From a virus (taxonomy: Duplodnaviria; Caudoviricetes): a DNA stretch of 64,000 nucleotides. Shown here piece by piece: positions 27,967 through 64,000 of the stretch. The stretch spans positions 32,205-96,204 of the IMG/VR virus record IMGVR_UViG_2799112248_000007; one strand, 5' to 3'. The translations under genes were made by a program, and so were the position numbers. Below the pieces are notes generated by a model that saw nothing but the letters and a program-made list of their open reading frames with translations, was not told where the DNA came from and made no database searches. The first letter of the stretch is position 1. Every line of letters begins with the position of its first letter.

Positions 27967-28725
27967 ATGGCAACAAAAGCGCCTGAGGTTTCATGGTATG
28001 AAGGTACAAATGAATTTTCTAAACAAGTAAACTATACAGTAAACTACGGTACTGTAGATGCTGACTCACCGTCACAAACTAAAGTATTCTATATTTGGAA
28101 TAACCGTGGAGGTAAAGAAGATTGCTCTAAAATGGAGGAAGTAACATTCACAACTCGTGACCGTAAGGGTGGTGATGGAAGTCAAGATGGAAACATTGTT
28201 CAGGCAGTTAAAGATTGTTGGTTCAATGTTCGTGTAGATAGCTTAGGTGAAGAAGATAAATTTTTACCTGTTGGTAAAAGTGGTGTTAAAGATACAAATA
28301 GGTCAGGTGTTAAAGACTTAGGTACAACAGGAACTACAACAAATGTAAATGCATCTACTGCCCAAGTTTGGTCTGCTAAAAAAGATTTAGCATTAAACAC
28401 TTATGTCCAACCAACAAATCCAAATGGTTTCATTTATAAGGTTACTAAAGCAGGTACAACAGATGTTAACGAGCCACAATGGGCAGATAAGGAAGGAAAC
28501 CCTACATTTGATGGTTTAGATATTGAATACCAAGCTATCAAAATTGAAAAAACACCTGCAACAAAAGAAATTTTAGGCTTTGCAAATAATACGAAGGAAG
28601 ATGGCTCTGACGCTCACTTAGCAGGCGGTAACTTCGTTAAGATTTCTGTATATGCAGATGTACCAGTTGATGCATTAGCAGGTAAAAACCTATTAATGCA
28701 ACGTGTTTCATACCGTTACGTTTAA
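27967..28725 (+). CDS. Structural protein with a CBM-like insert (cassette A slot 0)
   Basis: VNYGTVDA...YIWNNRGG; WSAKKD.ALNTYVQP...IYKVTKAG...EPQW module. Confidence 0.6.
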   Translation: MATKAPEVSWYEGTNEFSKQVNYTVNYGTVDADSPSQTKVFYIWNNRGGKEDCSKMEEVTFTTRDRKGGDGSQDGNIVQAVKDCWFNVRVDSLGEEDKFLPVGKSGVKDTNRSGVKDLGTTGTTTNVNASTAQVWSAKKDLALNTYVQPTNPNGFIYKVTKAGTTDVNEPQWADKEGNPTFDGLDIEYQAIKIEKTPATKEILGFANNTKEDGSDAHLAGGNFVKISVYADVPVDALAGKNLLMQRVSYRYV

Positions 28726-28766
28726 AAGTAACATAATAATATAATTAGGTAAAAGAGTGATTTTAC

Positions 28767-28800
28767 AGGGTAAGGGGATTTCTCCCCTACCCTATTTTTT
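28767..28800 (+). terminator. Terminator-like hairpin; copies at ~44616-44648 and ~53311-53344
   Basis: AGGGTAAGGGGA/TCCCCTACCCT stem followed by a T-tract. Confidence 0.65.
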
Positions 28801-28848
28801 ATGAATTTTTTAATAAAAAACTTCAATGCAATGAAGGAGATTGATAAT

Positions 28849-29448
28849 ATGTTATTCACAAATGGACAAAATTTACAGGCGATCGGTATCCCCTTTAATT
28901 GGAACGCTGATTATGTAAATGGTAAAAACTATGCTGAGTATGACCTACTTACGCATGAGAAAAATGATTTTTATTTAATTCAGAGAAATCAGGTTATTCG
29001 TTTTGGTTTGTTTGGTCAAGGAATGAAATTTTTCTTCGAAATGTCAGATGGTTCATTCAACCTAATGAAGAGAAGAATTGAAGTTGAGTACATTGACGAA
29101 AATGGAGAAACTTATCATTTAACAACAAATTTCGAAAACAAAGACCTTATCACATATAAAGAAGCTTACACTGACTACAGCAATGTACAAGGTGTTCAAC
29201 GCTCAAATATCAAGTCCATTAATTTTGGCTACAAAACAATTTACAAGAAAGATGATGTTCAACTATTTTTCCAACCTGTTGTATCCCTACCCTTTAATGA
29301 GAGCGCCTTTATTGAGGTCAAATTAACATCGAATAAGGACATGAACGGCTACTTGGTGTTCAAATCAAGTGGGATTGAAATAGAACGCTTCTACGCCCCT
29401 TTAGAAGCCAATAGAGCAGGTCAAATTAATTGGACTATCAAAAACTAA
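28849..29448 (+). CDS. Conserved hypothetical protein (A slot 1)
   Basis: AAGGAG RBS before ATG at 28849; 3' half near-identical to 44766-45182. Confidence 0.75.
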   Translation: MLFTNGQNLQAIGIPFNWNADYVNGKNYAEYDLLTHEKNDFYLIQRNQVIRFGLFGQGMKFFFEMSDGSFNLMKRRIEVEYIDENGETYHLTTNFENKDLITYKEAYTDYSNVQGVQRSNIKSINFGYKTIYKKDDVQLFFQPVVSLPFNESAFIEVKLTSNKDMNGYLVFKSSGIEIERFYAPLEANRAGQINWTIKN

Positions 29449-29469
29449 CACAAAGAGAGGAAATGCACT

Positions 29470-29802
29470 ATGAAGAGATTTTGGCTACGTCTTCCTGAAA
29501 AAAATGACTACTTAGAAATAACAGCTACGAACAATAAGTTATCATTATTTGAGTCTTCAACTGAAAAAGCTTACACAGTAGACATAGGTAATTATTCACT
29601 TGAGAAACTACGAGATAATCTAGTTAGTAAAGGCTTAGATGCTCGGATTGGAGAAATTAAAGCACCTAAAAACTCTAAATTCATTGTATTGTTCTTAGAC
29701 AGCTCATTCACAAATGTAAATGGTAGCTTTGTTACTTTTGTAGGCGGTATAGAGTCTATTGACACAGGAGATAGACAAGAAGAAAACATAATTCACATTT
29801 AA
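29470..29802 (+). CDS. Hypothetical protein (A slot 2)
   Basis: Paralogue at 45204-45536; GAGAGG RBS. Confidence 0.75.
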   Translation: MKRFWLRLPEKNDYLEITATNNKLSLFESSTEKAYTVDIGNYSLEKLRDNLVSKGLDARIGEIKAPKNSKFIVLFLDSSFTNVNGSFVTFVGGIESIDTGDRQEENIIHI

Positions 29803-29818
29803 GAAAGGAAGATGCTCT

Positions 29819-30892
29819 ATGACAGTAGTAGGCGGTAATTTAGAGCGCAAAGAGGTAGGATTACCTATTGGTGTTTCAGGAACTCACGATAATACTGAAA
29901 TTAATAGGACAACAGGTTTTCTACAATTGATGCAAGTTGATGTTGATGGTCAAGGAAGACCTATTTATACAGAAAAAGGCTCTTGGACTTCCGATGTGAT
30001 TGATTTAGGCGATAAGTTTAAGGATTTTGAAAAAGTATTTACAACCAATACAAAGAATGAAAGAAGCTCTTTCGCAGTATTAACAAGAGTATCAGACAAT
30101 GGTATAGATTGGTCTGATTGGACTGCTATTGCAATGGATGGAACTATTCAATCTGATATAAAACAATATATTCAAGTTAGAATAAATTTGTTTGCAGGTT
30201 TTGTTACAGATTTATTCATTATTTCAAATTCAGATTTCGAAAAAAATGAATTTGTTTTAGAAAAGAAATTAACTGATAGTGGTTATGCAGTTCCAACTTT
30301 AACATCAAATACATCTTCTTCACTTGGTTTTGCTTTTGCTTCTAGTGAATATAACTATAGCTACGCTCCGTGGAAAGCATTCGATAAAACTGATTCAGGA
30401 TACTATAATACAAAGAATGGTGAAGCGACTGGATTCTTAGGATTTTATTTCAAAGAAAAAAAAGTAATCACTAGGTATAAGGTAAGGAGTGCGAATAGTA
30501 ATCAAACATTGTTTTTTCAATGTTTACCTAAAAATTGGGTTTTACAAGGCAGCAATGACACTACAAATGGTACTGATGGCACTTGGGATGACTTGGATGT
30601 TCAAAACAATCAATCATGGACTACAATAAACACAGATAAGGTATTTGAAGTAAAAAGAGTAAATAAATATCATGCTTATAGACTAAATTGGTCTGCAAAC
30701 AATGGTTATGCGGGTTATTCAATTATTGGAGAACTAGATTTTTATGAAGAAGGAACAACGTCACTAAGTCTTAAACGAGATTATAAATTTGATATGAAAC
30801 TTGACACTAAATGGTCAGATACAGGAAGCTTACACAGACAAAAAATTACTCGTGCTGATTGGTTAAAGATTGATAGACTTGAGGTGTTATAA
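29819..30892 (+). CDS. Tail-tip protein with a discoidin (F5/8C-like) domain (A slot 3)
   Basis: GSWTSDVIDLG N-terminal domain; LTSNTS...PWKAFD...PKNWVLQGSND...YHAYRL discoidin. Confidence 0.75.
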   Translation: MTVVGGNLERKEVGLPIGVSGTHDNTEINRTTGFLQLMQVDVDGQGRPIYTEKGSWTSDVIDLGDKFKDFEKVFTTNTKNERSSFAVLTRVSDNGIDWSDWTAIAMDGTIQSDIKQYIQVRINLFAGFVTDLFIISNSDFEKNEFVLEKKLTDSGYAVPTLTSNTSSSLGFAFASSEYNYSYAPWKAFDKTDSGYYNTKNGEATGFLGFYFKEKKVITRYKVRSANSNQTLFFQCLPKNWVLQGSNDTTNGTDGTWDDLDVQNNQSWTTINTDKVFEVKRVNKYHAYRLNWSANNGYAGYSIIGELDFYEEGTTSLSLKRDYKFDMKLDTKWSDTGSLHRQKITRADWLKIDRLEVL

Positions 30893-32200
30893 ATGGACAT
30901 TGTAACAAGCTATGATAATTGGGGTGGAAAAGGAAACCGAACAACTATACTCAGTGGCAACTCAGAAGTGTTTGATGGAACTGAAACTACCTATATGTAT
31001 TATGGTAATGGTGGGCAAATCAATATTAATATTATTTTCAGTGGGCTAGAAGGAAGATTATATATTGATGGCATTAAAGTAATTAGAACAAACTATGGAT
31101 TTAGTGATAAGCAAATATTATTAAATGATGTAGTAATAGGAACTTTTAACGATAATACAGACTCTCCACTACCTATGTTAAAACTCAAGAGAAATGACAA
31201 ATTAACTATCAAAGGAAAGAACAAAGAAACAGGTGGCGGTACATACCCTACCTATATCAGAGAAATTGAGTTTAAAACATATTATGTTCCTGATAAGTCT
31301 TTTATCTATCATGATGGTGAATATAAAAAAATTGAGCAGAAAAAAACTAGTTCAGCGTTTTATAATGGTACAAATTCCTATATGAGAACAACGAAAGTCC
31401 ACAAATATAACTTAGTGACATTAGAAACTTGGGTCAGACCCCATGCAATAACTAGTACACATCAAGATATTATGTCAAACGTTGAAAATGGAGGACACTC
31501 TATAGGTCTTCTAAACGGAAAACCTTATTCAAGATTTTATTTAAATGGTGCATATAGATATTGTTATGGAAACGAGCTTCCATTAAACCAATGGTCGCAT
31601 ATAGCAACAACATTTGATGGCAAAAATATTATATTTTATGTAAATGGCGTTAAGGTGAGTGAGCTTGCCTATAGTGGAACGGTTGGAAAGACATCTGCTA
31701 TATTTTCATTAGGAGCTAACCCTGCTGTTACCTCTGGATATATAGAGTATTTTCAAGGAGAATTAAAAGATTCAAGAATTTGGACTGTCGCTAGAACAGA
31801 ATTAGAAATATCAGAAAACATGTATCAACTCTCTGAAAAAGATAGTATGTCTGATAATTTAGTAGCATGGTATCCACAAGACGAGACTTTTGGCACAATA
31901 TGTATAGATAAAAGTAAATATGCTAGTAATGGAACTTATTCACAAGCTACTTTTCTTGTTAAGTATTCTACTAAAAAGATACTTACAGTTTCAAACTCCC
32001 TTCCAAATTCTACACAATTCCTAGAGCATGGAATATCTTTAGCTCCTCTATTTGACCGAGAAGTAACACAATTAGAACCTACTGATATGACAAAAAGAAA
32101 TGACATTCTTGGTTTAGGAGAAGTTGGCAAAGTATTTAGTAAAAGTATTGACTTAAAGAAATATTTTGATATTAGAACTATTAGAACTGAGATGAAGTAA
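30893..32200 (+). CDS. LamG-domain receptor-binding protein (A slot 4)
   Basis: TLETWV...WSHIATTFDG...FYVNG...RIW LamG; constant C-terminus KVFSKSIDLKKYFDIR. Confidence 0.75.
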   Translation: MDIVTSYDNWGGKGNRTTILSGNSEVFDGTETTYMYYGNGGQININIIFSGLEGRLYIDGIKVIRTNYGFSDKQILLNDVVIGTFNDNTDSPLPMLKLKRNDKLTIKGKNKETGGGTYPTYIREIEFKTYYVPDKSFIYHDGEYKKIEQKKTSSAFYNGTNSYMRTTKVHKYNLVTLETWVRPHAITSTHQDIMSNVENGGHSIGLLNGKPYSRFYLNGAYRYCYGNELPLNQWSHIATTFDGKNIIFYVNGVKVSELAYSGTVGKTSAIFSLGANPAVTSGYIEYFQGELKDSRIWTVARTELEISENMYQLSEKDSMSDNLVAWYPQDETFGTICIDKSKYASNGTYSQATFLVKYSTKKILTVSNSLPNSTQFLEHGISLAPLFDREVTQLEPTDMTKRNDILGLGEVGKVFSKSIDLKKYFDIRTIRTEMK

Positions 32201-33489
32201 TGAGTGAAACTATTTGGTATGAAACAAACATGACTTCTAATGACAAACCTTCTCCTTTAAAAGCGAGTGCAAGTAGTGAATATCAAGGCGCTAGTTTTTA
32301 TCCTGCATATCAAGCATTTGATGGGAAAGTTGGGGCAGTTAAATTTTGGAGAACTTATACTGATAACTTCCCCTATTGGCTTAAGATAGATTTTAACAAA
32401 AGAATACAAGTTAATAAAGTAAGAGTCCAAGCTACAGACTCAGACCTACCATCTCACCCAACAGAATTTAAGATTTATTCATCTATTGATGATGTAGAAT
32501 ACAAAGAATTAGGTCATTTTACTAATATAAATAGTTGGAGTGCCAATGAGACAAGAGAGTTTAAAATAAATGATACAACAGCTAGATACTTTAGAATCAA
32601 TGTTATAAGCTCAGGAGCAAGTTATACTACTATTGGCGAAGTTACTTATGGCTATGAAAACACTAATAAAACATTTATTTTACATGATGGCGAATATAAA
32701 ACTGTAGAATTAATACCATCCAAAGTAGTAGAGCCTGAAGGTAAGACACCTCAAAGCCTAGTTCCTCTTATGACATCAAATACAGCTCCTATGGGAGTAG
32801 CATTAGCTAGTGAAGAAATCAGTGCAGGAGATAGAGCGTACAGGGCATTTGATGGGAGCTTTAACACTGATAATACAGGATGGATGGCTAACTCAAGAAA
32901 AGCATGGATTCAATATCAATTCGCTAATAACAAGAGGTATAAAGTTATTAAATATAGAATGAAACCAGTGCAAAGAACACCATCAACAGACCCATTTCAT
33001 CTCAATAGAGCGCCTAAAACTTGGACATTTGAAGGTAGTAATGATGGTGTGAATTTTGAAATACTAGATACTCAAAATATGACTAGTTCATGGACTAATA
33101 ATTTCAGAGATTTTGAAATTGACAATGACAAATATTACAATATTTATCGTGTTAATATTACAGCACCAATGTCAGATTCAGAAACTTATATCACTATTGG
33201 TGAAATTCAATATATAGGTAAAATTTTCAGCGAGGATGAACTTACTGTTATCTATGATAAACAATGGACTACAATACCATCAACTCTTCCAACTCACACT
33301 AAATTTAATGATTATGGGATGGACAACCTATCTCCTCTATTAGACCGAGCAGTAACAGAGTTTGCGCCTTTACCAATGTCAGATAAAAGTGAGATTTTAG
33401 GTGTTGATGTTATAGGAAAAGTGTTTAGTAAAACTATTGATTTAAAGAAATATTTTGATATAAGGAGTATCAGAACTCAGGTGAAGTAA
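32200..33489 (+). CDS. Double discoidin-domain receptor-binding protein (A slot 5)
   Basis: Two MTSN...ASSE...AFDG domains; constant KYFDIR C-terminus. Confidence 0.75.
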   Translation: MSETIWYETNMTSNDKPSPLKASASSEYQGASFYPAYQAFDGKVGAVKFWRTYTDNFPYWLKIDFNKRIQVNKVRVQATDSDLPSHPTEFKIYSSIDDVEYKELGHFTNINSWSANETREFKINDTTARYFRINVISSGASYTTIGEVTYGYENTNKTFILHDGEYKTVELIPSKVVEPEGKTPQSLVPLMTSNTAPMGVALASEEISAGDRAYRAFDGSFNTDNTGWMANSRKAWIQYQFANNKRYKVIKYRMKPVQRTPSTDPFHLNRAPKTWTFEGSNDGVNFEILDTQNMTSSWTNNFRDFEIDNDKYYNIYRVNITAPMSDSETYITIGEIQYIGKIFSEDELTVIYDKQWTTIPSTLPTHTKFNDYGMDNLSPLLDRAVTEFAPLPMSDKSEILGVDVIGKVFSKTIDLKKYFDIRSIRTQVK

Positions 33490-33490
33490 T

Positions 33491-34734
33491 ATGACAATAT
33501 CTTTGATTGATGGTCGTTGGAACTCTACAAATGACTACACAGTAACAAATGGAGTTTTATCATCAAAAAGTACAATTGGCTCTAGATTTCTTGGAGAAGG
33601 TAAATTTTATTTTGAAATCACCAATACCACAGCTACAACAAATAGATGGATAGGTGTAACTTCTAAAACAGACCCTGCATGGGTTAGTTATGGTAATATG
33701 GTTGGAACATTTAGAAATAATGTAAGTCTTACTGCTTTAACTACTAATGCTGTATATGGGTTTCACTTAGACTTAACCTCTACTGAAAAAGGTAGATTGA
33801 GATATAACATCAATGGAGGGGTTTTCTCAAATTGGTTTGATATTGTTGATTATGCAGGAAACACCTTTAATGAAATAAAGCCTGCAATCGGAAGTTCCTC
33901 TAGCTCAAATGGAGAAACCCCTTTCTTTATTAATACAGGACAAATAAAATTTTATAATGATATAAAAGAGTTATCTAACGATAAAGAGTTCATAGACACT
34001 TATTTTTTTGATGGAAGTGGCTCTATTAAAGCCATAAGATTCTTCTTCAATCAAGCAATAAAACTTACTCATTAGATTCAATTGACACTGTATACGAAAC
34101 AAAAATGACATCTAATACTGCCCCTGCTCCATTAATTGCAAGTGCAAGTAGTGAATTTAGTACAACATATCCTGCATGGAAAGCTTTTAATGGCACTAAT
34201 ACAGGTGGTAACTATGACTATTGGATTAGTGTTGCAGGAACAACAGGTTGGATACAAATTAATTATGGTAAAAGAGTTCATGTTAATATCCTTGAGTTAA
34301 GTTCCACAATGTTAACACAACAAGTAGCAAATGGTATGCCAAAAGACTTCAATATTTTAGCGTCAAATGACAATTCTAAATTTATAAAATTAGCTGAATT
34401 TAAAGAACAGACATGGAACAATGGAGAAACTAAAAAATATAAATTTAGAAACAACATTGCATATCAGTATTACAGAATAGAGATATTTAGTACTAATGGA
34501 TATGGATATGTGTGTATTGGGGAGATATTATTCAAAAGCATAAGAAACATTACTATAGAAATACCAAAAATAAATGTAAATAATTTTGTCAAATATGGTG
34601 TATCTGACCTTAAAAATTTAAATAGAGTTAATGATAGTAAAAACTATATTTTACAAAATGAAGTATCAGAAAACGAAGATGGATTGTGGCCAACTAAACT
34701 AGATAGAAAACCATTAAGTATAGGATTTAATTAA
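33491..34734 (+). pseudogene. SPRY-like plus discoidin protein split by a frameshift near 34030 (A slot 6; ORFs 33491-34075 and 34105-34734)
   Basis: Alternate frame reads SHKILLQSSNKTYSLDSIDTVYETKMTSN, the linker seen in intact paralogues; ends with KLDRKPLSIGFN. Confidence 0.75.
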
Positions 34735-34760
34735 AATAAAGGGTGAGGTGAATCATAAAA

Positions 34761-35888
34761 ATGAATTGGTATTTAAAAGTAGAAGGCTCAGGCGGAGGAA
34801 CTAGTGGCAGTGGAATACTACTTATTGAAGTATATGACCAAAAAGGGAATTTAGTAAAACTAACTAAAAACGATGTCATTGAAACTAATGCTACATCACG
34901 AATTGCAGATGATAATTATCTTCAAATGTTCCAAACAAGAAGTTCATTACAACCATACAATGGGATTGCGAGTGGAATTTTTTATATCATAAGATTACCT
35001 AATTATGTTGATGGTTTTGCAAAAGTTGTTTTAAAGAATTGGACAAATACTTCTTATGATATTAGAAACATTAAAGTAAGTGTTTCAAAAGATAATAAAA
35101 AATATGAAGAAGTTTATTATGGTTCTTTTGCAACAAGTGAAGAAAAAACAGTTTTGCAAAACTATTCTTTAGGAATGCATAGACTTCTTCTTCAATCAAA
35201 TAACAAAATATATTCATTAAAAGAATCAGATAAAGATGGTATTTGGTATGAAACTAAAATGACTTCTGATACTTCCCCCTCCCCTTTAAATTCTAGCGCT
35301 AGTAGTATTTGGAGTTCTACTTTTCAAGCTTGGAAAGCATTTAATGGAACAAATATTGATAGTAATGATTGTTGGGTAACAGTTGGTGGTTCTATAGCAG
35401 GTTGGATTCAACTAGACTTCGGTTCTCCTAAATACTGTAATCAAATAAAACTTACTTCTAGGTCAGGAAGCACAGCAAATGCTTGTCCAAAGGATTTTAC
35501 AATAAGTGCATCAAATGATGGTTTAACTTTTGATGTAATAGCAAATATTACAGGACAGACAAAGTGGGCATTGAATGAAACACGTATAATTACATTCAAA
35601 AACGTTAGAAAATATCGCATATATAGGCTAACAGTGATTTCGAATGACGGATACAGTAGTTATAGTGCTATTGGAGAATTGCAATTCGGATATAAAGGTA
35701 ACACTGTTTTTGACTTGCCTAAATGTTCACAAAAAAACTTCATTGAATATGGTCAAAAAGAGCTGTTAAATCTAAATGAACCAATCCCTACTAAAAGTTA
35801 CATTTTACAAGATGAAGCTTCAAAAAATGAGCAAGGTCTTTTAACAACTAAATTAGACAAAAAACCACTCATCATTAGTTTTGAATAG
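34761..35888 (+). CDS. Discoidin-domain receptor-binding protein (A slot 7)
   Basis: Variable N-terminal domain, discoidin, constant TTKLDKKPL C-terminus. Confidence 0.75.
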   Translation: MNWYLKVEGSGGGTSGSGILLIEVYDQKGNLVKLTKNDVIETNATSRIADDNYLQMFQTRSSLQPYNGIASGIFYIIRLPNYVDGFAKVVLKNWTNTSYDIRNIKVSVSKDNKKYEEVYYGSFATSEEKTVLQNYSLGMHRLLLQSNNKIYSLKESDKDGIWYETKMTSDTSPSPLNSSASSIWSSTFQAWKAFNGTNIDSNDCWVTVGGSIAGWIQLDFGSPKYCNQIKLTSRSGSTANACPKDFTISASNDGLTFDVIANITGQTKWALNETRIITFKNVRKYRIYRLTVISNDGYSSYSAIGELQFGYKGNTVFDLPKCSQKNFIEYGQKELLNLNEPIPTKSYILQDEASKNEQGLLTTKLDKKPLIISFE

Positions 35889-35981
35889 TTAAAAACAGTT
35901 TTAAATTGTTTTAAACTATTTAAAATGTCGCTGAGTTTTTATTTTGATTTTCTTAATACAATAAGAAAGGAATGATTTACA

Positions 35982-37187
35982 ATGGCGGTTGGCACTCAAT
36001 ATAGCGTTGCAGAGAATGGATGGATAAGATTCGAGGAAAATAACTCCAATTTTGAATATTCTACAGGATGGACTAATTGGAGTGGTATAGACACAAGTGG
36101 AGGTACTGACAAAAGAACAAACACAGTTGGTCAAACTATAAAATTTGGTTTCATAGGAAATTCAATTAGAATAATAGCTCCTATTAATAAGGATTTATCA
36201 AACTCATTAAAGATTTCTATAGATGGAAAAGAAGAAGATTTCACTGAATATAACGCTACATTAGTTTGGAGAGTTTGTGTATACGAAAAAACAGGATTAT
36301 CAAATAAAAAACACTCTGTAGTTATTACAACTAATTCTACTGCAACAAATATTTTAGATGCTGTGGACTTGGTGTTAGGTAGCTCGATAATTCCTTACCA
36401 AGATAGTCTTCCTATCAGAAAAATGGTCTTACAAAACCCTAGTAACTCTACTCAATATTATTCCCTTTCAGACAACACTCTAATTCACCTACCTGATAAC
36501 TCACATAAAAACATGATTTTACATGGCATTGAACAAGGCAAAGAGATTCAATTAGATGTGCTTTTTACTAAGCATAATTACTTTAATGACACACCTATTG
36601 CTAATGTGAGTGGCAAAGTGTTCACACATGATATTGGTGAAATCAATACCTTGAATATCAAAGAAATAAGTGACAATAGTAGTGAACCTATCTTTACTTG
36701 GTACAATACAAATATGACTTCCGATACAGCACCAAGCCCTCTTGTTGCTAGTGCTAGTAGCTCGTACAGTGCAGACTATTTGCCATTTAGAGCTTTTGAT
36801 GGCTCTATAGAATTATTACCAAATGGTGCTAATAGCACATGGCTAACTGCTAATAATGTTACTACTGGATTTATTCAAATAGATTTTGGTACAAATAAAA
36901 AGGTTAATATATTTAAGATTTATCCAAGACAAAATGAGCTTGCAAATGCAGGTATTTCAGCAACTCCAAAAAGGTTTACCTTGATGGGTTCTAATGATGG
37001 AAGCAATTTCAGTAAGATAAAGGAATTTGAAAATATTGTTTGGAATAACCTACGTGAAAAACAATTTGTTTTAGATAGCGAAGTCAATTATAGATTTTAC
37101 AAAATAGATGTTATGGAAAATAACGGTAGTACGTTGTATGTTGCAATAGGAGAATTATTATTTGGATATAAAAGAGAGGTGAATTAA
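35982..37187 (+). CDS. Carbohydrate-binding jelly-roll plus discoidin protein (A slot 8)
   Basis: ENGWIRFEE...F.G.SIRII...LDAVD domain, constant DNTLIHLPDNS linker, discoidin, GYKREV end. Confidence 0.75.
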   Translation: MAVGTQYSVAENGWIRFEENNSNFEYSTGWTNWSGIDTSGGTDKRTNTVGQTIKFGFIGNSIRIIAPINKDLSNSLKISIDGKEEDFTEYNATLVWRVCVYEKTGLSNKKHSVVITTNSTATNILDAVDLVLGSSIIPYQDSLPIRKMVLQNPSNSTQYYSLSDNTLIHLPDNSHKNMILHGIEQGKEIQLDVLFTKHNYFNDTPIANVSGKVFTHDIGEINTLNIKEISDNSSEPIFTWYNTNMTSDTAPSPLVASASSSYSADYLPFRAFDGSIELLPNGANSTWLTANNVTTGFIQIDFGTNKKVNIFKIYPRQNELANAGISATPKRFTLMGSNDGSNFSKIKEFENIVWNNLREKQFVLDSEVNYRFYKIDVMENNGSTLYVAIGELLFGYKREVN

Positions 37188-37188
37188 T

Positions 37189-38142: not shown

Positions 38143-38186
38143 ACTAGTTGTCCTTTTATTATGGAAAAATATTGGAGGTCAATACA

Positions 38187-53950: not shown

Positions 53951-53966
53951 GAAAGGAAGATGCTCT

Positions 53967-55046: not shown

Positions 55047-55049
55047 GGG

Positions 55050-55925
55050 GTGAGAAAAATAGAAACAAGAGCTATAACAGGTGGAACTATTAATTATGAT
55101 GTATCCACACCTAGCGTAAACACAATTGAGTTTTGGATAAAACTAAAAAGTGATTTCAATAAAACTATGAAATTATTCTTTAATGGAACACTCTCTGAAA
55201 TAATGCTAGATGCTAGGGGTTCAATTGGAGTGAGACATGCTGTGAATAATTATGGAAATCCAGGTAGTATTGTATATGGAAATATTCTTTTAGAGAAAGA
55301 TAAGTCTAATCACATAGCGATAACTATAGGAAACTCAGGGTGCAAAATATATATTAATGGAGAACTTAGTCTATCTACTACATCTATTAACTCATATAGT
55401 AGAAGTTTTAAAATGATTTCTTTTACAGAAAAAGATGGTGTTATTCTTGAGTTTCCAAAATTTTGGAACAGAGAGCTTAGTAAAACGGAAATCCTAGAAA
55501 GCTATGAGAAAAAAAGAGTCCTTATCTCTAATATAGATGGCTTAATTATGTATGATTTATTTGCAGACACAGGCTCAATAAATGAAGTATCCAATATACC
55601 TACAACATCATCTAATATCACTTATCACTCTAAACAGACAATTCTTTATATTACTAAATCTCTTATTACACATGATAGTGAGTATAAGAAATTTCATGGA
55701 GGATGGTCAACAGTTTCTAATACTCTACCTAACCCTACTCAATTCCTTGAGAAAGGGATGAACAACCTATCTCCTCTTGACCGCAAAGTAACACAATTAG
55801 AGCCAATACCAATGACTCAAAGAAATGATATTCTATCGTCAGGAGAAGTTGGTAAAGTTTTTAGTAAAGAAATTGATTTAAAAAAATATTTTGACATAAG
55901 ACGTACTAGAACTGAGGTGAGATAA
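55050..55925 (+). CDS. LamG-domain protein (C slot 4)
   Basis: TIEFWIK...HIAIT...IYING...FWNREL; KYFDIR end; GTG start. Confidence 0.7.
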   Translation: MRKIETRAITGGTINYDVSTPSVNTIEFWIKLKSDFNKTMKLFFNGTLSEIMLDARGSIGVRHAVNNYGNPGSIVYGNILLEKDKSNHIAITIGNSGCKIYINGELSLSTTSINSYSRSFKMISFTEKDGVILEFPKFWNRELSKTEILESYEKKRVLISNIDGLIMYDLFADTGSINEVSNIPTTSSNITYHSKQTILYITKSLITHDSEYKKFHGGWSTVSNTLPNPTQFLEKGMNNLSPLDRKVTQLEPIPMTQRNDILSSGEVGKVFSKEIDLKKYFDIRRTRTEVR

Positions 55926-57142
55926 TGGCAACCATGAATACACCAAAAAATGCAAAACCAATGGTTAAATTTAATTTTATCTCTTCAAACTATGTAAGCT
56001 CAGTAAACACACATGCTAATACACCGACACCACTTAACAAATTAACGGAAGTTTTACATGATGGAATAACATCTAAACAAGGAACATATGGAGCTGTACT
56101 GTTAGTTGGAGGTACAACAGCATATATAGAGTTTAAAGTAGAAGAAGATTGTAGATTTTGGGCTACTAGTGGATTATACAGTGATAGTGGTGGAGCGTCA
56201 GGAAACGAATTAAATATCTTCAAATACAACAACGAACTTCAAACATACCAACTATTTAAAACTGTACCAACAACCGCTACAGAAGATTGGTATGTTGTTT
56301 GTGATTTACTAACTAAAGGAACATATAAAATTCAAGCTAAAGGAAATTACGTTCAATTCAACGAATTTTACTTTGAATCTATAGTAGAAAATAAAACACT
56401 TGTTTTACATGATGGTCAGTTTAAGAAATTTACACCATTAAACAAAAGTAATTTTGTGAGCATAATTCCTGAAATGACCTCAAACACAGCTCCAATTGGT
56501 GTAGCAGAAACTAGTAGTATTTACGGAAGTAGCTACGATGCATGGAAAGCTTTTGATAAGAAGGACACCACTATTTGGCATAGTGGTAGTGGTACACCAC
56601 AATGGATTTCATATGAAGGTTTATCAAAAAAAAGAGTAACAAGGCTTTTAATAGTAGGTAGATATGATTCACTTATTTCCTCTCAAGGATTAAAGACTTT
56701 TACTATACAGGGCTACAACACCAATACAAATTCATATGTTGATATTGCAACAATTACTGATAATACTACTTGGCAGGAGACTGAAAAAAGAATTTATGAT
56801 TTTGAAAATAAAAATGAATATTTAAAATATCGCTTATATATAACAGCTACAACAGGAACGAGCGCATTTGCTGTAACACAAGTGGACTTTTTAGAGCCGT
56901 TAGATATTGTAGAAGCTCATTGGTCAACAGTTTCTAATACTCTACCTACACCTACTCAATTCTTAGAACAAGGTATGGACAATCTATCTCCTCTTGACCG
57001 CAAAGTTATAGACCTAGAACCTTTACCCATGATAAATAAAAGTGAGATTTTAGGTGTTGGTGAATTAGGAAAAATGTTTAGTAAAACAGTAGATTTAAGA
57101 AAGTATTTTGACATAAGAAGTATAGGAATTGAGGAGAAATAA
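55925..57142 (+). CDS. Variable N-terminal domain plus discoidin protein (C slot 5)
   Basis: YSDSGG domain, MTSNTAP discoidin, KYFDIR end. Confidence 0.75.
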   Translation: MATMNTPKNAKPMVKFNFISSNYVSSVNTHANTPTPLNKLTEVLHDGITSKQGTYGAVLLVGGTTAYIEFKVEEDCRFWATSGLYSDSGGASGNELNIFKYNNELQTYQLFKTVPTTATEDWYVVCDLLTKGTYKIQAKGNYVQFNEFYFESIVENKTLVLHDGQFKKFTPLNKSNFVSIIPEMTSNTAPIGVAETSSIYGSSYDAWKAFDKKDTTIWHSGSGTPQWISYEGLSKKRVTRLLIVGRYDSLISSQGLKTFTIQGYNTNTNSYVDIATITDNTTWQETEKRIYDFENKNEYLKYRLYITATTGTSAFAVTQVDFLEPLDIVEAHWSTVSNTLPTPTQFLEQGMDNLSPLDRKVIDLEPLPMINKSEILGVGELGKMFSKTVDLRKYFDIRSIGIEEK

Positions 57143-58366
57143 ATGGTCATTAAAATAGATGGGAATTGGAGCAACAAAAGTTTAAGAACAGGAGTTTCTA
57201 ACCTTGGAGGGGTCACTACCAATGGGCTTAGAAGACTAGGAGATGGTATGTTTTATTGTGAAATTCTTTCTGAAAACACAGTGAGTTATAAACATATAGG
57301 TGTTGCAACCCCTCTTAATCAAAGTTGGGTTAGCTACGGAAAGTTCACTAATGCCCTATATCCAATTGGCTCAGCAGTTGCCGGTGCAACATATGGTATT
57401 CTCCTTGATTTAACAGGTACAGTTGGAAGGTTCAGTTGGAACAAAGATGGTGGGGAATTTTCTAGTTGGACTAACTTAATTGATTCACAAGGAAACACGA
57501 TTAAAGATTTTAGATTAGGTATAGTCGGAAGTTCTTCAGGTGGAGGCACACAATATTTTACCCTCAACTATAATGCAAAAACATTTAAAACAAAACATAG
57601 TGATATTTTAGGTGTTGCTAAAGGAGAAGTTTACACTTTTGATGGCTCTGAGAAACTTCGGATAGAAAAATCTCTGTTTAAATCTAAAAATAAGACATAT
57701 TCACTAGAATTAATTGACACTTGGTACAATCTTAAAATGACCTCAAATAATACCCCTTCTCCTTTGGTAGCTAGTGCTAGTAGCATTTGGAGTGACACTT
57801 TCCCTGCTTGGAAAGCATTTAATGGAACAAATAATGATAGTAGTGATTGTTGGGTAACGGTTGGTGGCTCTATAACAGGTTGGATTCAACTAGATTTCGG
57901 TTCTCCCAAAAACTGTAATCAAATAAAACTTACTTCTAGGTCAGGAAGTACAGCAAATGCCTGTCCAAAGGATTTTACAATAAGTGCTTCAAATGATGGC
58001 ATAACTTTTGATGTCATAGCAAATATCACAGGACAATCAAAGTGGGCATTAAATGAAACTCGTATGTTTACATTTAAAAATGCTAAAAAATATCGCATTT
58101 ATAGATTAATAATAATTTCTAATGATGGATATAGTAGTTATAGTGCTATTGGACAATTACAATTTGGATATAAAGGTAACACTATGATTTGTTTACCTAA
58201 AATTTCACAAGATAACTTAATTAAATATGGTCAAATAGAGCTATTAAAACTAAATGAGCCTATACCGATTAAAAACTACCTTTTACAAGATAAAATATCT
58301 GAAAGTTCAGAAGGATTATGGACAACAAAGCTAGACAGAAAACCATTGAGTATTAGTTTTAACTAG
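57143..58366 (+). CDS. SPRY-like plus discoidin protein (C slot 6)
   Basis: N-terminal domain homologous to A slot 6; discoidin near-identical to A slot 7; KLDRKPLSISFN end. Confidence 0.75.
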   Translation: MVIKIDGNWSNKSLRTGVSNLGGVTTNGLRRLGDGMFYCEILSENTVSYKHIGVATPLNQSWVSYGKFTNALYPIGSAVAGATYGILLDLTGTVGRFSWNKDGGEFSSWTNLIDSQGNTIKDFRLGIVGSSSGGGTQYFTLNYNAKTFKTKHSDILGVAKGEVYTFDGSEKLRIEKSLFKSKNKTYSLELIDTWYNLKMTSNNTPSPLVASASSIWSDTFPAWKAFNGTNNDSSDCWVTVGGSITGWIQLDFGSPKNCNQIKLTSRSGSTANACPKDFTISASNDGITFDVIANITGQSKWALNETRMFTFKNAKKYRIYRLIIISNDGYSSYSAIGQLQFGYKGNTMICLPKISQDNLIKYGQIELLKLNEPIPIKNYLLQDKISESSEGLWTTKLDRKPLSISFN

Positions 58367-58383
58367 ATAAGAGAGGTGAGAAA

Positions 58384-59441
58384 ATGAATTGGTATTTAAA
58401 AGTAGAAGGCTCAGGTGGAGGAACTAGCGGTAGTGGAATACTTTTTATTGAAGTATATGACCAAAAAGGTAGTTTAGTAAAACTAACAAAAGGTGATGTT
58501 ATTGAAACTAATGCTTCACAAAGAATTGCTGATGATAACTACATTCGAATGTTCCAAACAAAAGGTTCGTTACAACCATATAACGGGATTGCTAGTGGTA
58601 TTTTTTATACTATAAAACTTCCTGAATATGTTAACGTTTTTGCAAAAGTGCTACTAAAGAATGAGACAAACAATTCTTATGATGTTAGAAACATCAAAAT
58701 AAGTATTTCTAAAGATAATATTGAATATCAGCAAATTTTTTATGATACTTTTGCCACAAGTGAAGAAAAAATAATTTTACAAGCCTATTCATTTTACAAA
58801 CATAGAATACTATTACAATCTAACAATAAAACACACTCAATCCAAACCATATATAAACCATATGAATTAAATATGACTTCAAACACTTCCCCTTCCCCAT
58901 TGGTTTCCAATGGCTACAAAGCATTTGATGGAAATTTATCAACATATCATATTGTCTCTAACGATTACAACGGGCTTATAACTTTAGATATAGGAAAAGA
59001 AATATTAATAAGTAAAATAGAGTGGATAGTGAATAAAAAATTTTCAACTACTAGTTTTGTTATTAAAGCTTCTAAAGACAAGAAAACATGGAATACTTTA
59101 TATAATGAAACTAAAGAATGTCAATGGCTTTCGGCAATAACGTACGAAAAAACTTTTATTGAAGATTCTTATAGATATTTTCAAATCTCTTTTGGTTATC
59201 ACACAAGAACAGATTTTAATTTTTCTGAAATAAGATTTTAAAAAAATATATAGGTATTTTAGAAGTTCCTGTTTTAAACGATAGTAATATCTTGAAATAT
59301 GGAGGAGAGCTTAGATTCGAAAATCTTGATAGTGGTATTGAAGATAAAAGCTACATTTTACAAGATGGAGTGTCAGTAAATGTAGAAGGTCTTTGGACAA
59401 CTAAATTAGATAGGAAACCACTTAGCATTAGTTTTAAATAG
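58384..59441 (+). pseudogene. C slot 7, frameshifted near 59236-59246
   Basis: ORF stops at TTTTAAAAAAA; the constant tail ...LWTTKLDRKPLSISFK continues in another frame to 59441. Confidence 0.75.
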
Positions 59442-59492
59442 TGCTGAGTTTTATTTTGACTTCTTAATACAATAAGAAAGGAAGGATTTACA

Positions 59493-60686
59493 ATGGCAGT
59501 TGGCACTCAATATAGTATTGCAGAAAATGGATGGATAAGATTCGAGGAGGATAATCCCAATTTTGAATATTCTACAGGATGGAGTAATTGGAGTGGTATT
59601 GACACAAGTGGAGGTACTGATAAAAGAACAAACACAGTTGGTCAAACTATGAAATTTGGTTTCATAGGAAATTCAATTAGAATAATAGCTCCTATTAATA
59701 AGGATTTATCAAACTCATTAAAGATTTCTATAGATGGAAAAGAAGAAGATTTCACTGAATATAACGCTACATTAGTTTGGAGAGTTTGTGTATACGAAAA
59801 AACAGGATTATCAAATAAAAAACACTCTGTAGTTGTTACAACTAATTCTACTGCAACAAATATTTTAGATGCTGTGGACTTGGTGTTAGGTAGTTCGATA
59901 ATTCCTTACCAAGATAGTCTTCCTATTAGAAAAATGGTCTTACAAAACCCTGGTAACTCTACTCAATATTATTCCCTTTCAGACAACACTCTAATTCACC
60001 TACCTGATAACTCACATAAAAACATGATTTTACATGGTATTGAACAAGGCAAGGAAGTTCAATTAGATGTGCCTTTTGATAAACATAGATATTTTAATGA
60101 CACACCTGTTGCTAATGTGAGTGGCAAGGTATTTACACATGATATTGGTAAAATTAATACTTTAAGTATCAAGGAAATAAGAGAGAATAATAGTATTGTA
60201 ACAACTTGGTATGAAACAAATATGACTTCCAACAACACCCCTACTCCACTAGTCGCAAGTGCTAGTAGTATTTATAGCAATGACTTTATGCCATATATAC
60301 CATTTAGTGCGAGTCCATCCACAGGAAATACTTAAGATTGTTGGGCGTCAGTTAATGGCGTTACAAATGGTTGGTTAAAAATAGACTATGGTAAAGAGAT
60401 AATTGTTAACACATACAGATTAAGAAATAGATATTCTACTAGTAGTCCCTTAATAGCTAACATGCCAAAAACTTGGACTATAGAAGCATCTAATAATAAT
60501 TCTGATCGGACTACCATCCACAGTGTTAATAATTATACAAATTGGGTTGAACATCAAGAGTCATTTTTTACATTCGATAATACTAAAAAGTTTAGATATT
60601 ACAGAATAAATATTAGTCAAATAAACGGTGGGAATAATTATGTAGCTATAGGTAAGTTGTTATTTGGCGCAAGAGAGGTGAAATAA
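59493..60686 (+). pseudogene. C slot 8 with one in-frame nonsense codon (TAA 60333-60335)
   Basis: Frame continues DCWASVNGVTNGW...MPKTW...GAREVK after the stop. Confidence 0.78.
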
Positions 60687-61634
60687 ATGGCAACAACAGA
60701 ACAATTAATGTATCAATATGGTGTCGCATGGTTTGGTTTTGATGAAGCTAGTGGGAACGTTGTAAATAAGTTAGATAACAATTATATAGGAACAGTATCA
60801 GGTGGAGTAAGGGTTGAAGGATGGAATGGCGAAGGAAAAGCTATGAATTTAGATACTGTGGCTAATAAGAAAGTTGCCTTTAATTCAACTTTACTACCTT
60901 ATGGGGGAAAAACCGTACGTTTTAAATTTAAGTGTACTACTATAAACAATCAGTATTTTTTATTTATGGGTAATGCAAAAGGTTATAATACAAATGGCTG
61001 GTCTTTTCAATTTAGTGGTGGTAATGGATGGAATGGAACAATGCATATTGGCTTTAGAGGAAGTAGTGCCACTTATGAGTACCCAACATTATCAACGAAG
61101 AATGTTTGTGATGGGAAATGGCATGAAAGTATATTTTCATTAGAAGGTGGCACTATAGGGAGCAAATGGAGGACATACCTTGACGGTGAGCTTGTAAGTG
61201 AAGGAATATTAAAGCAAAACGAATCTTCATTTTCTAAAAACTTCGAGATTAATAATAGGTCTTATGGAAATTCAGGTAATTATGAAAATCTATTTTTAGA
61301 TGATTTACAAATTTACAATAAAGCTCTTTCCCCATCTGATTTTGAACAAAGAAGATTAGCTGTTAAAACAACAAATAATAAAAATCTTGTTTTATCCCCT
61401 ACTTCAACTCGTGTGAAAGAAATCCCTAACACAGCAGAATATATGATGTTAGCTCAAGGTGGAGTAGTGAAAGAGATTGATTCAGCAGTTGATAGACCAC
61501 CAATTGATTTTACTAAACCTACAACTGAATATGAGATTGTAACTAATAACAGGACACCTTTAGGGAAAGGTAGATTGTTTACTATTCCTATTAATAGTGA
61601 TTTTAAAACAATAATAATTGAGGACAACTATTAA
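60687..61634 (+). CDS. LamG-domain protein (C slot 9)
   Basis: Constant ends shared with 37189-38142; divergent LamG core. Confidence 0.75.
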   Translation: MATTEQLMYQYGVAWFGFDEASGNVVNKLDNNYIGTVSGGVRVEGWNGEGKAMNLDTVANKKVAFNSTLLPYGGKTVRFKFKCTTINNQYFLFMGNAKGYNTNGWSFQFSGGNGWNGTMHIGFRGSSATYEYPTLSTKNVCDGKWHESIFSLEGGTIGSKWRTYLDGELVSEGILKQNESSFSKNFEINNRSYGNSGNYENLFLDDLQIYNKALSPSDFEQRRLAVKTTNNKNLVLSPTSTRVKEIPNTAEYMMLAQGGVVKEIDSAVDRPPIDFTKPTTEYEIVTNNRTPLGKGRLFTIPINSDFKTIIIEDNY

Positions 61635-61678
61635 AATAGCTGTCCTTTTAATATGGAAAAATATTGGAGGTCAATACA

Positions 61679-64000
61679 ATGGCTAATATTAAAGATAATT
61701 TAAGTAAATATGGTAAAGCATTTATTGGTTTTGATGAACCTAGTGGTAATGCTATGGATTCTATAGGCGGTTATACAGGCACTTTATATAATTCTCCTAC
61801 TCGTGTAACAGGTTGGAATGGTCAAGGCAATGCTATGAATTTTAATGGGAGTAATCAATATGTGGAATTTAATAATTTAATTATCCCAAATACCTCTTTT
61901 TCAATAAGGTTCAAGATTAAGTTTTCTCAAATAAACAAAACTCAATATATATTTGGAACAAATGATAATTCAAGTAACATCAAAAATATAGGGGTTTATG
62001 TTACACTCATGGAGAATAATTCAATACGAGCATCTATACGCAGCTCTACTGGTGTTGACGCTAGTTGTTTCAGCACTATAGAAGTAACAACAGATAAATG
62101 GTATGATATATTGTTTATTTGGGATAAAGAAATTAAATCAAACAACGTTAAACTATATGTGAATGATATGACAGCTCCTAATGCCACAACAACTTTCAAT
62201 GACAATCTTACACATTATAGAAACCTAGTAATTGGAAACTTGTGGTCAAGTACTGCTCCTACAAGTGGCTATTATTTCAATGGTCACATAGACCAATTTG
62301 AAGTATATGATAAAGTAATCTCCCCTATTCCTGACAAATATCTAATTCAACACAACTCACAATATAAATACTATGATGGTACTGCTTGGCAACTAACAAC
62401 AAACACAGAAGAAAACTTTATCCAATATGGTATGAACAACCTAAACCACATTACAGAAAAACAATGGAAAGAGTTATCAGGCGATAAATCAGTGGTTATG
62501 TGGTCTGATTTTGAAGATAAGCAATTTGCTTCTGTTGTGTTAAATAAAAAGGAATTTAAAGCACAGGATTTATTAGGTGACAATCCTCAAGCTATTTACT
62601 ACACCGACTCAGACGCCTCACAAATCGTTGTAGAGACAGGTGTTGACCCTTACAGTATTTATGACTACATTGGAGAACTACCTACTGTAGTAGCTTATAC
62701 AGAGTCTACAGACGATATTATCGTATCAACAACAGTAGAACCATTTGACATCTACGATGAATTTGGTGATAGTGTTGAGGTTCTATACTACACAGATGAT
62801 GAAGCCGTAACAAATGCTGATTTAATCTTAGAGGCAAATTGGTCGCCGGTCGATGAACTTGATGGTGACTTTGAAGTTGTAACATGGACTGATGAAGCCC
62901 CTGAGACTGCTCAGAGAGTGTTAGAAATGAAAGCAGTACCCAAACCTCAATTTATTAAATTGGTCAGTCCTAAACGATTGTATGGTTATTTAGATGATGT
63001 GTTCGTCAATGAAATTTCTCAATCATATCGTGATGAAGCTCGTTACTTTGTTGCAGGCGAGAAAACTGATAAATGGTACTTTTGGAGCAAAAAGGAAAAT
63101 AAATTTGTGGTAGCCGATGCTTCCACTGAGCAAGAAATCACGACAAATGGTATGACACATAAAGACTTAAACAATTTAACCGATAAGCAATGGCGCACAT
63201 GGAATAGTGAATATATTAATATTGGTATGTTCTTAGTAGACAATCCTCGTGACACAATTAAAACAATTGTTGAGACAGTTTCATTTGAAGACTATCTTCC
63301 TCGTATTACTACAACTATCAAAGATACAAGTCTTTATATCATAAACACAACTGCTAAAATTAATATTTCTTTCGATGGTAACGTTCTAAAAGGTATTTTA
63401 AGTGATGATGATTTAACTCGTGTTCAATATCGTGTTCTATTAAACAATGGGAACTTCTACCCTTCTGATGGAAGTTTTACTAAACTTGGCGAATCACCTC
63501 AAAATATTGAATTAGTAATCGGAAGTAAAGATATTAAAATCGACGATTGGAATACACTTAAAGTAGAGTTCCAAGATTTCTATGGAACTACTGATTATTG
63601 GCAAGCAAACTTCATTGGAACATATTCAGGTCTTATGTTTAAAGATATATATGGGAAATACTTCTCTAGTGAGATTGGTGAGGTTCTACAGTATCTTGAC
63701 TTTGGTATCATCATTGCAGGTCAAACTACTATGGAGCATGAAATCATTCTTAAAAATCAGTATGGATATGATGTTGAGAATGTACATCTATATGCAAATA
63801 CAGCGAATTTCCCTACAGGTATGACTTGTGAGTTTAGCACAAGCCTCTCCCCTTTCATTCCTCATCCTGACTTAAGACTAAATGGTGTGCTAAAAAATAA
63901 CGAAGAAATAAGATTCTTCATTCGACTAAAATCTGAATTAGGCGCAACACCTGACGCTAACGGTTCATTTGACATTATCGTGAGAGCAGATAAGGCCTAA
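61679..64000 (+). CDS. LamG plus constant region protein (C slot 10)
   Basis: GGAGG RBS; divergent LamG; constant region near-identical to A slot 10; stop at 64000. Confidence 0.78.
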   Translation: MANIKDNLSKYGKAFIGFDEPSGNAMDSIGGYTGTLYNSPTRVTGWNGQGNAMNFNGSNQYVEFNNLIIPNTSFSIRFKIKFSQINKTQYIFGTNDNSSNIKNIGVYVTLMENNSIRASIRSSTGVDASCFSTIEVTTDKWYDILFIWDKEIKSNNVKLYVNDMTAPNATTTFNDNLTHYRNLVIGNLWSSTAPTSGYYFNGHIDQFEVYDKVISPIPDKYLIQHNSQYKYYDGTAWQLTTNTEENFIQYGMNNLNHITEKQWKELSGDKSVVMWSDFEDKQFASVVLNKKEFKAQDLLGDNPQAIYYTDSDASQIVVETGVDPYSIYDYIGELPTVVAYTESTDDIIVSTTVEPFDIYDEFGDSVEVLYYTDDEAVTNADLILEANWSPVDELDGDFEVVTWTDEAPETAQRVLEMKAVPKPQFIKLVSPKRLYGYLDDVFVNEISQSYRDEARYFVAGEKTDKWYFWSKKENKFVVADASTEQEITTNGMTHKDLNNLTDKQWRTWNSEYINIGMFLVDNPRDTIKTIVETVSFEDYLPRITTTIKDTSLYIINTTAKINISFDGNVLKGILSDDDLTRVQYRVLLNNGNFYPSDGSFTKLGESPQNIELVIGSKDIKIDDWNTLKVEFQDFYGTTDYWQANFIGTYSGLMFKDIYGKYFSSEIGEVLQYLDFGIIIAGQTTMEHEIILKNQYGYDVENVHLYANTANFPTGMTCEFSTSLSPFIPHPDLRLNGVLKNNEEIRFFIRLKSELGATPDANGSFDIIVRADKA

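Follow-up and report, generated by a model that had tools for sequence, protein, structure and literature searches.

An SPbeta-like Lysinibacillus prophage with tandem tail-tip adhesin operons at its right end: a probable recombining array maintained by selection

Introduction

Why does a prophage carry several sets of genes for putative receptor-binding proteins, with two of the sets placed behind its own endolysin gene? The question is raised by the IMG/VR virus record IMGVR_UViG_2799112248_000007 (Caudoviricetes), a single-contig provirus record of 96,204 bp representing a partial provirus. The last 64 kb of this record were analysed; the whole stretch is referred to as the window, and all positions given below are those of the window. 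Three tandem cassettes of putative receptor-binding genes, A (27967-40481), B (44217-53080) and C (53190-64000), are located in it. The host range of phages and tailocins is set by a few binding proteins, and the known routes of varying these within a genome are diversity-generating retroelements (DGRs), inversion switches and recombination with other phages. In the first-pass annotation, made by a model from the sequence alone, cassette A was regarded as an expression site and cassettes B and C as a reserve archive. The analysis presented here points to another answer: the locus is probably a tandemly amplified array of recombining tail-tip adhesin operons, which selection maintains at the right prophage end in an SPbeta-like element of Lysinibacillus.

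The slot numbers used for the genes of the cassettes are those of the first-pass annotation. The window was compared with Psychrobacillus phage Perkons, with the Lysinibacillus genome G020, with a relative containing a single set (G043) and with the runs X1, X2 and X3, which were seen as assembled contigs, X3 being a metagenome.

Results

Likeness among the three cassettes

The comparison of the window with itself by blastn (E ≤ 1e-10) resulted in 44 high-scoring segment pairs (HSPs), all of which were direct and collinear across A, B and C. The earlier described order of C-terminal tail classes, two KYFDIR-, two KPL-, one REV- and one IEDNY-tailed gene followed by a large LamG gene, was seen as well. 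The nucleotide identity of the heads (slots 1-3) was 92.8% between A and B (29021-30875 vs 44754-46608), 97.2% and 92.0% between A and C (29021-29444 vs 53450-53874 and 29735-30880 vs 53883-55028), and 98.4% and 96.6% in the two blocks aligned between B and C. Near-identical anchors had been claimed for both ends of C. Its head was 92-97% identical to A and 96.6-98.4% to B; for the constant part of slot 10, which was 89.4% identical to that of A over 1712 nt, the term is generous. The inner slots were aligned in patches of 65-88% nucleotide identity in all pairs of cassettes. The inner-slot proteins were 35-55% identical in most pairs, in agreement with the earlier statement that the binding domains differ.

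LamG_3 or F5/8 type C (discoidin) domains were detected with Pfam in slots 4-10 of all three cassettes. In the alignment of 12 KPL-type proteins, a variable N-domain was followed by the SNNKTYSL linker, a discoidin domain and a conserved 65-aa tail, and the N-domains and discoidin domains were variously combined. More than 250 proteins, among them gp366 of the jumbo Bacillus phage G, shared the constant part of slot 10 behind heads that are interchangeable (LamG, discoidin, SPRY, RCC1 and Glug). In the isolated phage Perkons, slots 0 and 1 as well as the N-terminus of slot 3 and the C-terminus of slot 10 had homologues with 43-62% identity and in the same order. By homology, the slot proteins are likely to be receptor- or carbohydrate-binding components of the distal tail. 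In phage G, gp363 (P0079) was 60% identical to the slot 3 anchor over 37% of the query and gp366 (P0214) was 52% identical to the slot 10 constant part; therefore, the slot 3 and slot 10 modules are common to unrelated phage types of this host group.

The predicted model of slot 10 was of mediocre confidence (predicted local distance difference test score, pLDDT, of 69.6), although its LamG head was modelled with confidence; the acidic linker was disordered and the C-terminal domains were rich in beta structure. The linker, residues ~291-426 of the slot 10 protein of A (gene at 38148-40481), is repeat-like with pLDDT below 50, and the G020 contigs break just behind it. The fold matches of the model included the tailspike of a cyanophage, a module of an arabinanase and, from clostridial neurotoxins, the lectin-like halves of the binding domains; the searches returned only the generic LamG jelly roll and nothing for the constant C-terminal part. 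In the PDB sequence search, slot 10 was matched to neurexin LamG and slot 3 had no match.

The statement of the first-pass annotation that only A follows the tail core with intact slots 0-2 held. Cassette A itself was not fully intact, since 10 of its 11 slots were open and slot 6 was split by a frameshift into 33491-34075 and 34105-34734, as judged against the 407-aa gene of C. Cassettes B and C were located, as described before, after the endolysin terminator (44164-44199) and were headed by ruined remnants of slots 0 and 1. The slot 0 remnants were decayed, with 77-79% nucleotide identity to A; slot 1 had a common 111-bp deletion in B and C, and an additional 270-bp deletion has fused slots 1 and 2 in C. 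The break of B in slot 9 was confirmed and is located 31 codons into the gene. Lesions beyond those listed earlier were the split slot 6 of A, a frameshift in slot 3 of B, the broken slot 7 of C and a stop codon in slot 8 of C. Slot 0 excluded, 12 of the 19 gene slots of B and C were open, with sizes of 110-778 aa. A small hairpin pairing the Shine-Dalgarno region of slot 8 was conserved in A, B and C (35940-35975, 51756-51778 and 59460-59485, + strand), just 3' of the terminator-like hairpin behind slot 7.

Exchange between cassettes

The head of C was a mosaic of the B-A-B type: B-like at 54 of the 55 informative sites in 53207-53722, A-like at 14 of 16 in 53770-54158 and B-like again in 54167-54958. 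Despite 96.6-98.4% identity and shared lesions in their heads, B and C have unrelated paralogues as bodies; therefore, either a head or a body has been replaced. The longest exact tracts were 221 nt (A-B), 183 nt (A-C) and 341 nt (B-C). Within genes whose identity is otherwise about 87%, A slot 6 matched B slot 7 exactly over 159 nt, and slot 8 of A matched that of C exactly over 183 nt. The mosaic and the exact tracts support the earlier claim of exchange by homologous recombination, and the copies are recombining at conserved heads, tails and linkers. No clear direction of transfer is suggested by the A-like patch in C or by the exact tracts.

The modules were also rearranged among the window, G020 and X2, and the contents of the A position differed, in support of the first-pass proposal. 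On the G020 contig C39, a homologue of the window A slot 4 (80%) was located beside a homologue of the window C slot 6 (92%); on contig C37, the head of the window C slot 4 (93.5%) was fused to the body of the window A slot 4 (81%). In an X2 contig, the end of B slot 4 was joined to the start of C slot 5. Two joints in X1, 50249 to 58381 and 51582 to 50154, were considered as recombinants and rejected because they rest on conserved tails of 30-78 nt. The KYFDIR and KPL genes alternate in G020, therefore the slot order is only partly conserved. The exchanged units thus appear to be gene pieces, genes and domains, and the swapping of whole sets, as first proposed, was not borne out. Due to cassette exchange, related elements whose early and neck genes show 93-99% identity differ strongly in their sets of binding domains. 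The modules of the A cassette of one genome were at most 81% identical to those of the post-endolysin cassettes of the other (window and G020; the best was 80.6% at the amino acid level), therefore a recent archive-to-A transfer between the genomes is not supported.

Relatives and reality of the array

The relatives of the cassette proteins were nearly all from Lysinibacillus. Slot 3 was detected in 10 of 49 Lysinibacillus species genomes, in one copy in nine of them and in five places in G020. Among 370 genomes of the family, the slot 10 constant part was found in 14, of which 12 were single-cassette. G043 had one minimal set and nothing cassette-like within 16 kb after the endolysin gene. 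Among the viral contigs searched, no relative of slot 3 was found, and a pattern scan for the head element resulted in five contigs, four of them with a single slot 10 (one, G371, seems to be a second record of the G020 element), and in no new array.

G020 was collinear with the whole 96-kb record, its early and neck proteins being 93-99% identical, and contained a single Tal gene (90% amino acid identity to the window Tal). Its layout was cassette A, CBM96 protein, 155-aa protein, endolysin (97.6%) and then a further cassette. At least five extra cassettes were found after the endolysin gene (contigs C53, C36, C37, C38 and C39). Four small contigs had one further cassette each, all broken within slot 10, and the last contig, C1, proceeded from a slot 10 end into host genes (YfkB-like radical SAM, GerA).

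The X1 contigs contained 94% of the sampled words, hence X1 is probably the source sample and not independent. Its depth was even (42-60) over the endolysin gene, B and C, and about 3-fold over slot 3, and one contig spanned the B-to-C junction (52323-53219) with zero mismatches. Contigs of X2 and X3 crossed the junctions between endolysin, terminator and slot 0 remnant. Considering these junction-crossing contigs and the layout of G020, an assembly artefact is unlikely.

Origin by duplication

On three G020 contigs (C37, C39 and C1) the slot 10 stop codon was directly followed by a homologue of 43979-44301, which comprises the last ~170 nt of the endolysin gene, the terminator and the slot 0 remnant. 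The same type of joint was found at the loose ends of X2 and X3 at 44033. The repeat unit in the relatives is accordingly an endolysin 3' fragment, the terminator, the slot 0 remnant, the head element of motif and hairpin, and slots 1-10. The endolysin contig of X1 ended at 44035, which was read as a repeat boundary and therefore as another copy of the endolysin fragment; most likely, this copy lies just past base 64000.

Both the start and the end of the record coincide exactly with gene ends, as in provirus boundary trimming; therefore, the stop codon at base 64000 is not the biological end of the array, which may continue beyond it. The CheckV completeness of the record was 29%.

The ancestral single set consisted of slots 0-3, then KYFDIR-, KPL- and REV-tailed discoidin and LamG proteins, and then slots 9 and 10. 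The repeat unit is explained by a tandem duplication from the middle of slot 0 through the terminator, which placed a copy past the endolysin terminator; the CBM96 gene and the redundant lysis genes of the copy were then deleted, and the leftover unit was amplified at the right prophage end. Slots 0 and 1 were ruined in all extra cassettes of both the window and G020. Between these two, the slot 0 remnants were 86-88% identical, and from this divergence of 12-14% the array is older than their split.

Selection on the extra copies

The ratio of nonsynonymous to synonymous substitution rates (dN/dS) was 0.27 for C slot 6 and its counterpart on G020 contig C39 (dS 0.15) and 0.13 for C slot 4 and its counterpart on C37; all four copies are post-endolysin. 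The corresponding values were 0.19 for A slot 4 with C39 and 0.08 for Tal of the window and G020. In a neutral simulation without indels, changes of 3%, 6.5% and 13% left 2.9, 0.9 and 0.2 of the 12 open B and C genes open, respectively. The extra genes have therefore been either kept by selection or acquired very recently.

Expression signals

A 20-nt motif with a TATAAT-like core was found in 8 copies in the window compared with 0.1 expected, always co-oriented with the local genes. It was present at all three cassette heads (28723, 44572 and 53268) and in G020 at five of five heads with slots 1-3. The late-region copies were followed by hairpins of differing sequence, those at the heads being terminator-like with a U-run. 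The motif possibly acts as a phage promoter that is followed by a leader or attenuator. A sigma-70 promoter scan remained at background (62 found, 72 expected). The genes of B and C had start codons and Shine-Dalgarno sequences like those of A, the latter missing from the truncated slot 1, and in the relatives each unit ended with its own copy of the endolysin terminator. As sequence signals, they are more readily reconciled with separate, regulated transcription units than with stores lacking a promoter, in disagreement with the proposed silent reserve.

Gene content and upstream tail core

The features of the window are presented in Table 1. The tail core was of the SPbeta type, with YOMG_N, Prophage_tail, DUF6558 and DUF6558_C domains in conserved order. 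The Dit part consists of three open reading frames (ORFs) of 199, 225 and 220 aa. The three-gene form is shared by G020 and Perkons (ORF190-188) and is therefore not a lesion. The PAAR-like gene directly 3' of Tal was conserved in G020 and Perkons. A homologue of the tyrosine recombinase, Perkons ORF195, was found in the equivalent position with 33% identity; since Perkons has no array, the recombinase is a family trait and not linked to the array. The search of the tail core against the phage collection by megablast gave no match.

The major capsid protein of Perkons and its four downstream neighbours had no tblastn match in the 96-kb record (capsid at E ≤ 1e-5), unlike the tail proteins, which matched Perkons at 43-62%. 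G020 was collinear with the window through 6779-9131. The element appears to be without head genes, portal and terminase not being among the queries.

Table 1. Positions of the features of the window.
Feature	Position	Strand	Basis or remark
Promoter-like motif copies	545, 3120	-	more copies upstream in the record
Promoter-like motif copies	4230, 4811, 28723, 43015, 44572, 53268	+	
Tyrosine recombinase	12276-13235	+	Pfam Phage_integrase and SAM-like N-domain; directly upstream of tape measure gene
Tail core	13222-27949	+	Pfam; collinear with G020 and Perkons
Tape measure, 2383 aa	13222-20373	+	tail core
Dit, three ORFs with DUF6558 N- and C-terminal domains	20374-22278	+	Pfam
Tal, 1335 aa, YOMG_N and Prophage_tail	22295-26302	+	Pfam
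PAAR-like protein	26314-26778	+	weak Pfam PAAR match; PHROG 281
Conserved 385-aa protein	26792-27949	+	tail core
A slot 0, 252-aa ORF, sole intact copy	27967-28725	+	58% identical to Perkons ORF182
A head control element: promoter-like motif (28723-28742), then terminator-like hairpin with U-run	28723-28795	+	
A slots 1-3, conserved head; slot 3 with N-terminal anchor and discoidin-like domain	28801-30892	+	PHROG tail-protein matches; Perkons ORF181 and ORF180 homologous
A slots 4 and 5, KYFDIR-tailed; LamG_3 in slot 4, discoidin in slot 5	30893-33489	+	Pfam
A slots 6 and 7, KPL-tailed discoidin proteins; slot 6 in two pieces	33491-35888	+	
A slots 8-10: slot 8 (REV end, discoidin), slot 9 (LamG, IEDNY end), slot 10 (LamG head, constant C-terminal part)	35982-40481	+	
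Non-repeated block	40513-44199	+	between A and B
CBM96 protein	40513-42441	+	non-repeated block
155-aa protein	within 40513-44199	+	after CBM96 gene
Promoter-like motif before lysis genes	43015-43034	+	
Endolysin, Amidase_2 and SPOR	43391-44149	+	Pfam
Strong terminator 3' of endolysin	44164-44199	+	z -7.2
B head: slot 0 remnant, motif (44572-44591), hairpin, decayed slot 1 5' end	44217-44762	+	
B slot 1 remnant (without Shine-Dalgarno sequence), slot 2 intact (45204-45536), slot 3 frameshifted (45553-46200 and 46242-46634)	44775-46634	+	
B slots 4-8, five open genes, 396-488 aa	46638-52983	+	discoidin domain in each
B slot 9 stub (31 homologous codons) and unique B-to-C junction	52987-53189	+	
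C head: slot 0 remnant, motif (53268-53287), hairpin, slot 1/2 fusion (53471-53950)	53190-53950	+	
C slots 3-6, all open	53967-58366	+	
C slot 7, broken (ORF 58384-59241; tail remnant to 59441)	from 58384	+	
C slot 8, lone in-frame stop codon 60333-60335, otherwise open	to 60686	+	
C slots 9 and 10, both open	60687-64000	+	slot 10 stop codon is the record end

Discussion

Interpretation and alternatives

The locus is best described as probably an amplified array of mutually recombining adhesin operons, kept by selection. Each cassette would be its own late transcription unit, read from the promoter-like motif at its head. In that case, B and C would contribute further binding specificities and act as recombination partners for A instead of being a silent store.

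Several observations weigh against this interpretation. Seven of the 19 slots of B and C were damaged, and in G020, too, some cassette genes were broken, slot 3 of the A cassette among them; therefore, a part of the array is decaying. The low dN/dS values could originate from selection acting before a recent import and not in place. The terminator behind the endolysin gene and the hairpin behind each head motif could silence B and C, barring antitermination. No capsid match was found in the record, and the virion role of the proteins is drawn from homology only. The order of the B and C bodies behind their heads depends on the original assembly. In PMC5467207, the SPbeta late genes are described as one operon transcribed by YonO, with the promoter undefined, and the motif is accordingly a putative promoter.

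The archive model of the first-pass annotation, in which only A is expressed and its specificity is altered by gene conversion from silent B and C, is unlikely, even though a number of the features suit it. Intact slots 0 and 1 and the adjacency to the tail core are found in A alone, B and C are located behind a strong terminator, and A shares the exact tracts with B (159 nt) and C (183 nt) besides its patch in the head of C. At the A position, the window and G020 have nothing in common in their contents despite flanks of 76-98% identity, and the best G020 homologues of the window A slot 4 (80%) reside in post-endolysin cassettes and not in the A cassette of G020. Selection on stored copies would be expected as well if the store were used frequently. 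The stored copies are, however, complete operons with start codons, Shine-Dalgarno sequences and the promoter-like motif, and with their own terminators in relatives. The sole directional clue, the A-like patch in C, would be a transfer from A into the store, or is directionless. No archive module exceeds 81% identity to an A module of the other genome, and the exchange is piecemeal. If B and C were instead functionless leftovers of duplication or of recombination between prophages, slowly decaying at the prophage end, the damage to 7 of the 19 slots, the ruin of slots 0 and 1 throughout the extra cassettes of both genomes, and a possibly defective element (no capsid homologue found, low CheckV completeness) would be explained. 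Such an origin is improbable, as 12 genes are open where 0.2-2.9 would be expected under a drift of 3-13%, the dN/dS values are 0.13-0.27, and the array is older than the separation from G020, in which it has been retained or has even grown.

Two further explanations are hardly credible. The false chaining of hypervariable-region variants of several strains, or of misjoined repeats, could be suspected from the record end exactly at a repeat-bearing gene, from the 96.6-98.4% identity of the B and C heads and from the break of the G020 assembly in slot 10. The endolysin-to-B and B-to-C junctions are nevertheless located in unique or diverged sequence, X1, probably the source sample, covers the latter without mismatch and at even depth, the types of junction recur in X2, X3 and G020, and gene ends as record ends are expected from provirus trimming. 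A similarly very low probability is given to an integron-like shuffling, in which the tyrosine recombinase (12276-13235) would excise and reinsert cassettes at the head hairpins. A Phage_integrase-family gene is present within the tail module and each head contains an imperfect inverted repeat with a 6-nt centre. On the other hand, the cassette boundaries are off the hairpin (at the slot 10 stop and endolysin fragment, at 53078-53189, and at the mosaic switches inside slots 1-3), the recombinase is conserved in the array-less Perkons, and other copies of the motif carry hairpins of other sequence, as terminators or leaders would.

The array of selected, recombining adhesin operons thus remains the probable description. 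A more far-reaching version of it is doubtful: an operon library kept by selection would feed the tail-proximal set by gene conversion and reset the target range without a reverse transcriptase (RT) or invertase, in a head-less tailocin-like particle that is free of the packaging limit, with an expansion to at least six cassettes in G020. The lineage has retained, beside its working set, additional binding-protein operons that amount to 20 kb to more than 50 kb, are mostly intact and recombine. If the extra sets are expressed, the tail would be unusually multivalent; if they are a donor pool, they would form a recombination-based diversification system. The grammar of anchors, linkers and tails is a natural blueprint for swapping binding domains.

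Comparison with known systems

No description of such an array was found in the literature searched. The closest layout is the SPbeta-like tail module of Bacillus phage SPbeta and Perkons (MT325768.1), which shares the order of recombinase, tape measure, three-ORF Dit, YomG-like Tal, PAAR-like protein and 385-aa protein. The shared order continues with slot 0, slot 1, the slot 3 anchor, the slot 10 constant-part protein, a CBM96-like protein and the lysis genes. Perkons has one set only, whereas two more follow the endolysin gene in the window and at least five more in G020. In Perkons, an RT gene (ORF175; L018 31759-32835) separates the slot 3 anchor homologue from that of the slot 10 constant part, which suggests a DGR at the cassette-bearing locus. 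With the RT in this variable stretch, the locus is a diversification hot spot by another route.

DGRs, such as that of phage BPP-1, and the inversion systems Gin/G of Mu, Min and Rin change phage binding specificity. A DGR was ruled out in the 96-kb record by the absence of matches to PF00078, in accordance with the earlier note of no RT. An inversion switch or shufflon was likewise ruled out: all 44 self-HSPs were direct, and the only inverted pairs, seven of 25-31 nt with 71-84% identity, were not meaningful, so that the earlier remark on inverted segments was correct. An integron-like array was excluded by the position of the cassette boundaries away from the head hairpins.

In the antigenic variation of Neisseria (pilE/pilS) and Borrelia (vlsE), silent cassettes serve as donors, and classical silent cassettes are not known to have start codons, Shine-Dalgarno sequences, a promoter or a terminator of their own. 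One complete locus beside related copies and conversion-like tracts are common to these systems and the window. In the window, by contrast, the copies are full genes that have translation signals and a promoter-like motif, so that the incomplete or promoterless state that defines stored copies does not apply to them; gene conversion, on which such systems rely, does appear to operate.

Klebsiella phage PhiK64-1 and E. coli phage CBA120 reportedly encode several receptor-binding proteins or tailspikes side by side. They are similar to the present array in the number of binding proteins per genome and in the modular domains on conserved anchors, and differ in that single genes were multiplied inside the structural operon; here, an operon of about ten genes is repeated behind the lysis genes, with copies lacking the first two genes. 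Shuffling of receptor-binding modules through conserved linkers occurs with the His boxes of T-even gp37/gp38 and with the collagen-like repeats of Streptococcus thermophilus phages. In the window, SNNKTYSL and the conserved tails flank the variable domains in the same manner and the exchange is at the domain level. The partners differ, being a standing tandem array in the same genome and not only other phages.

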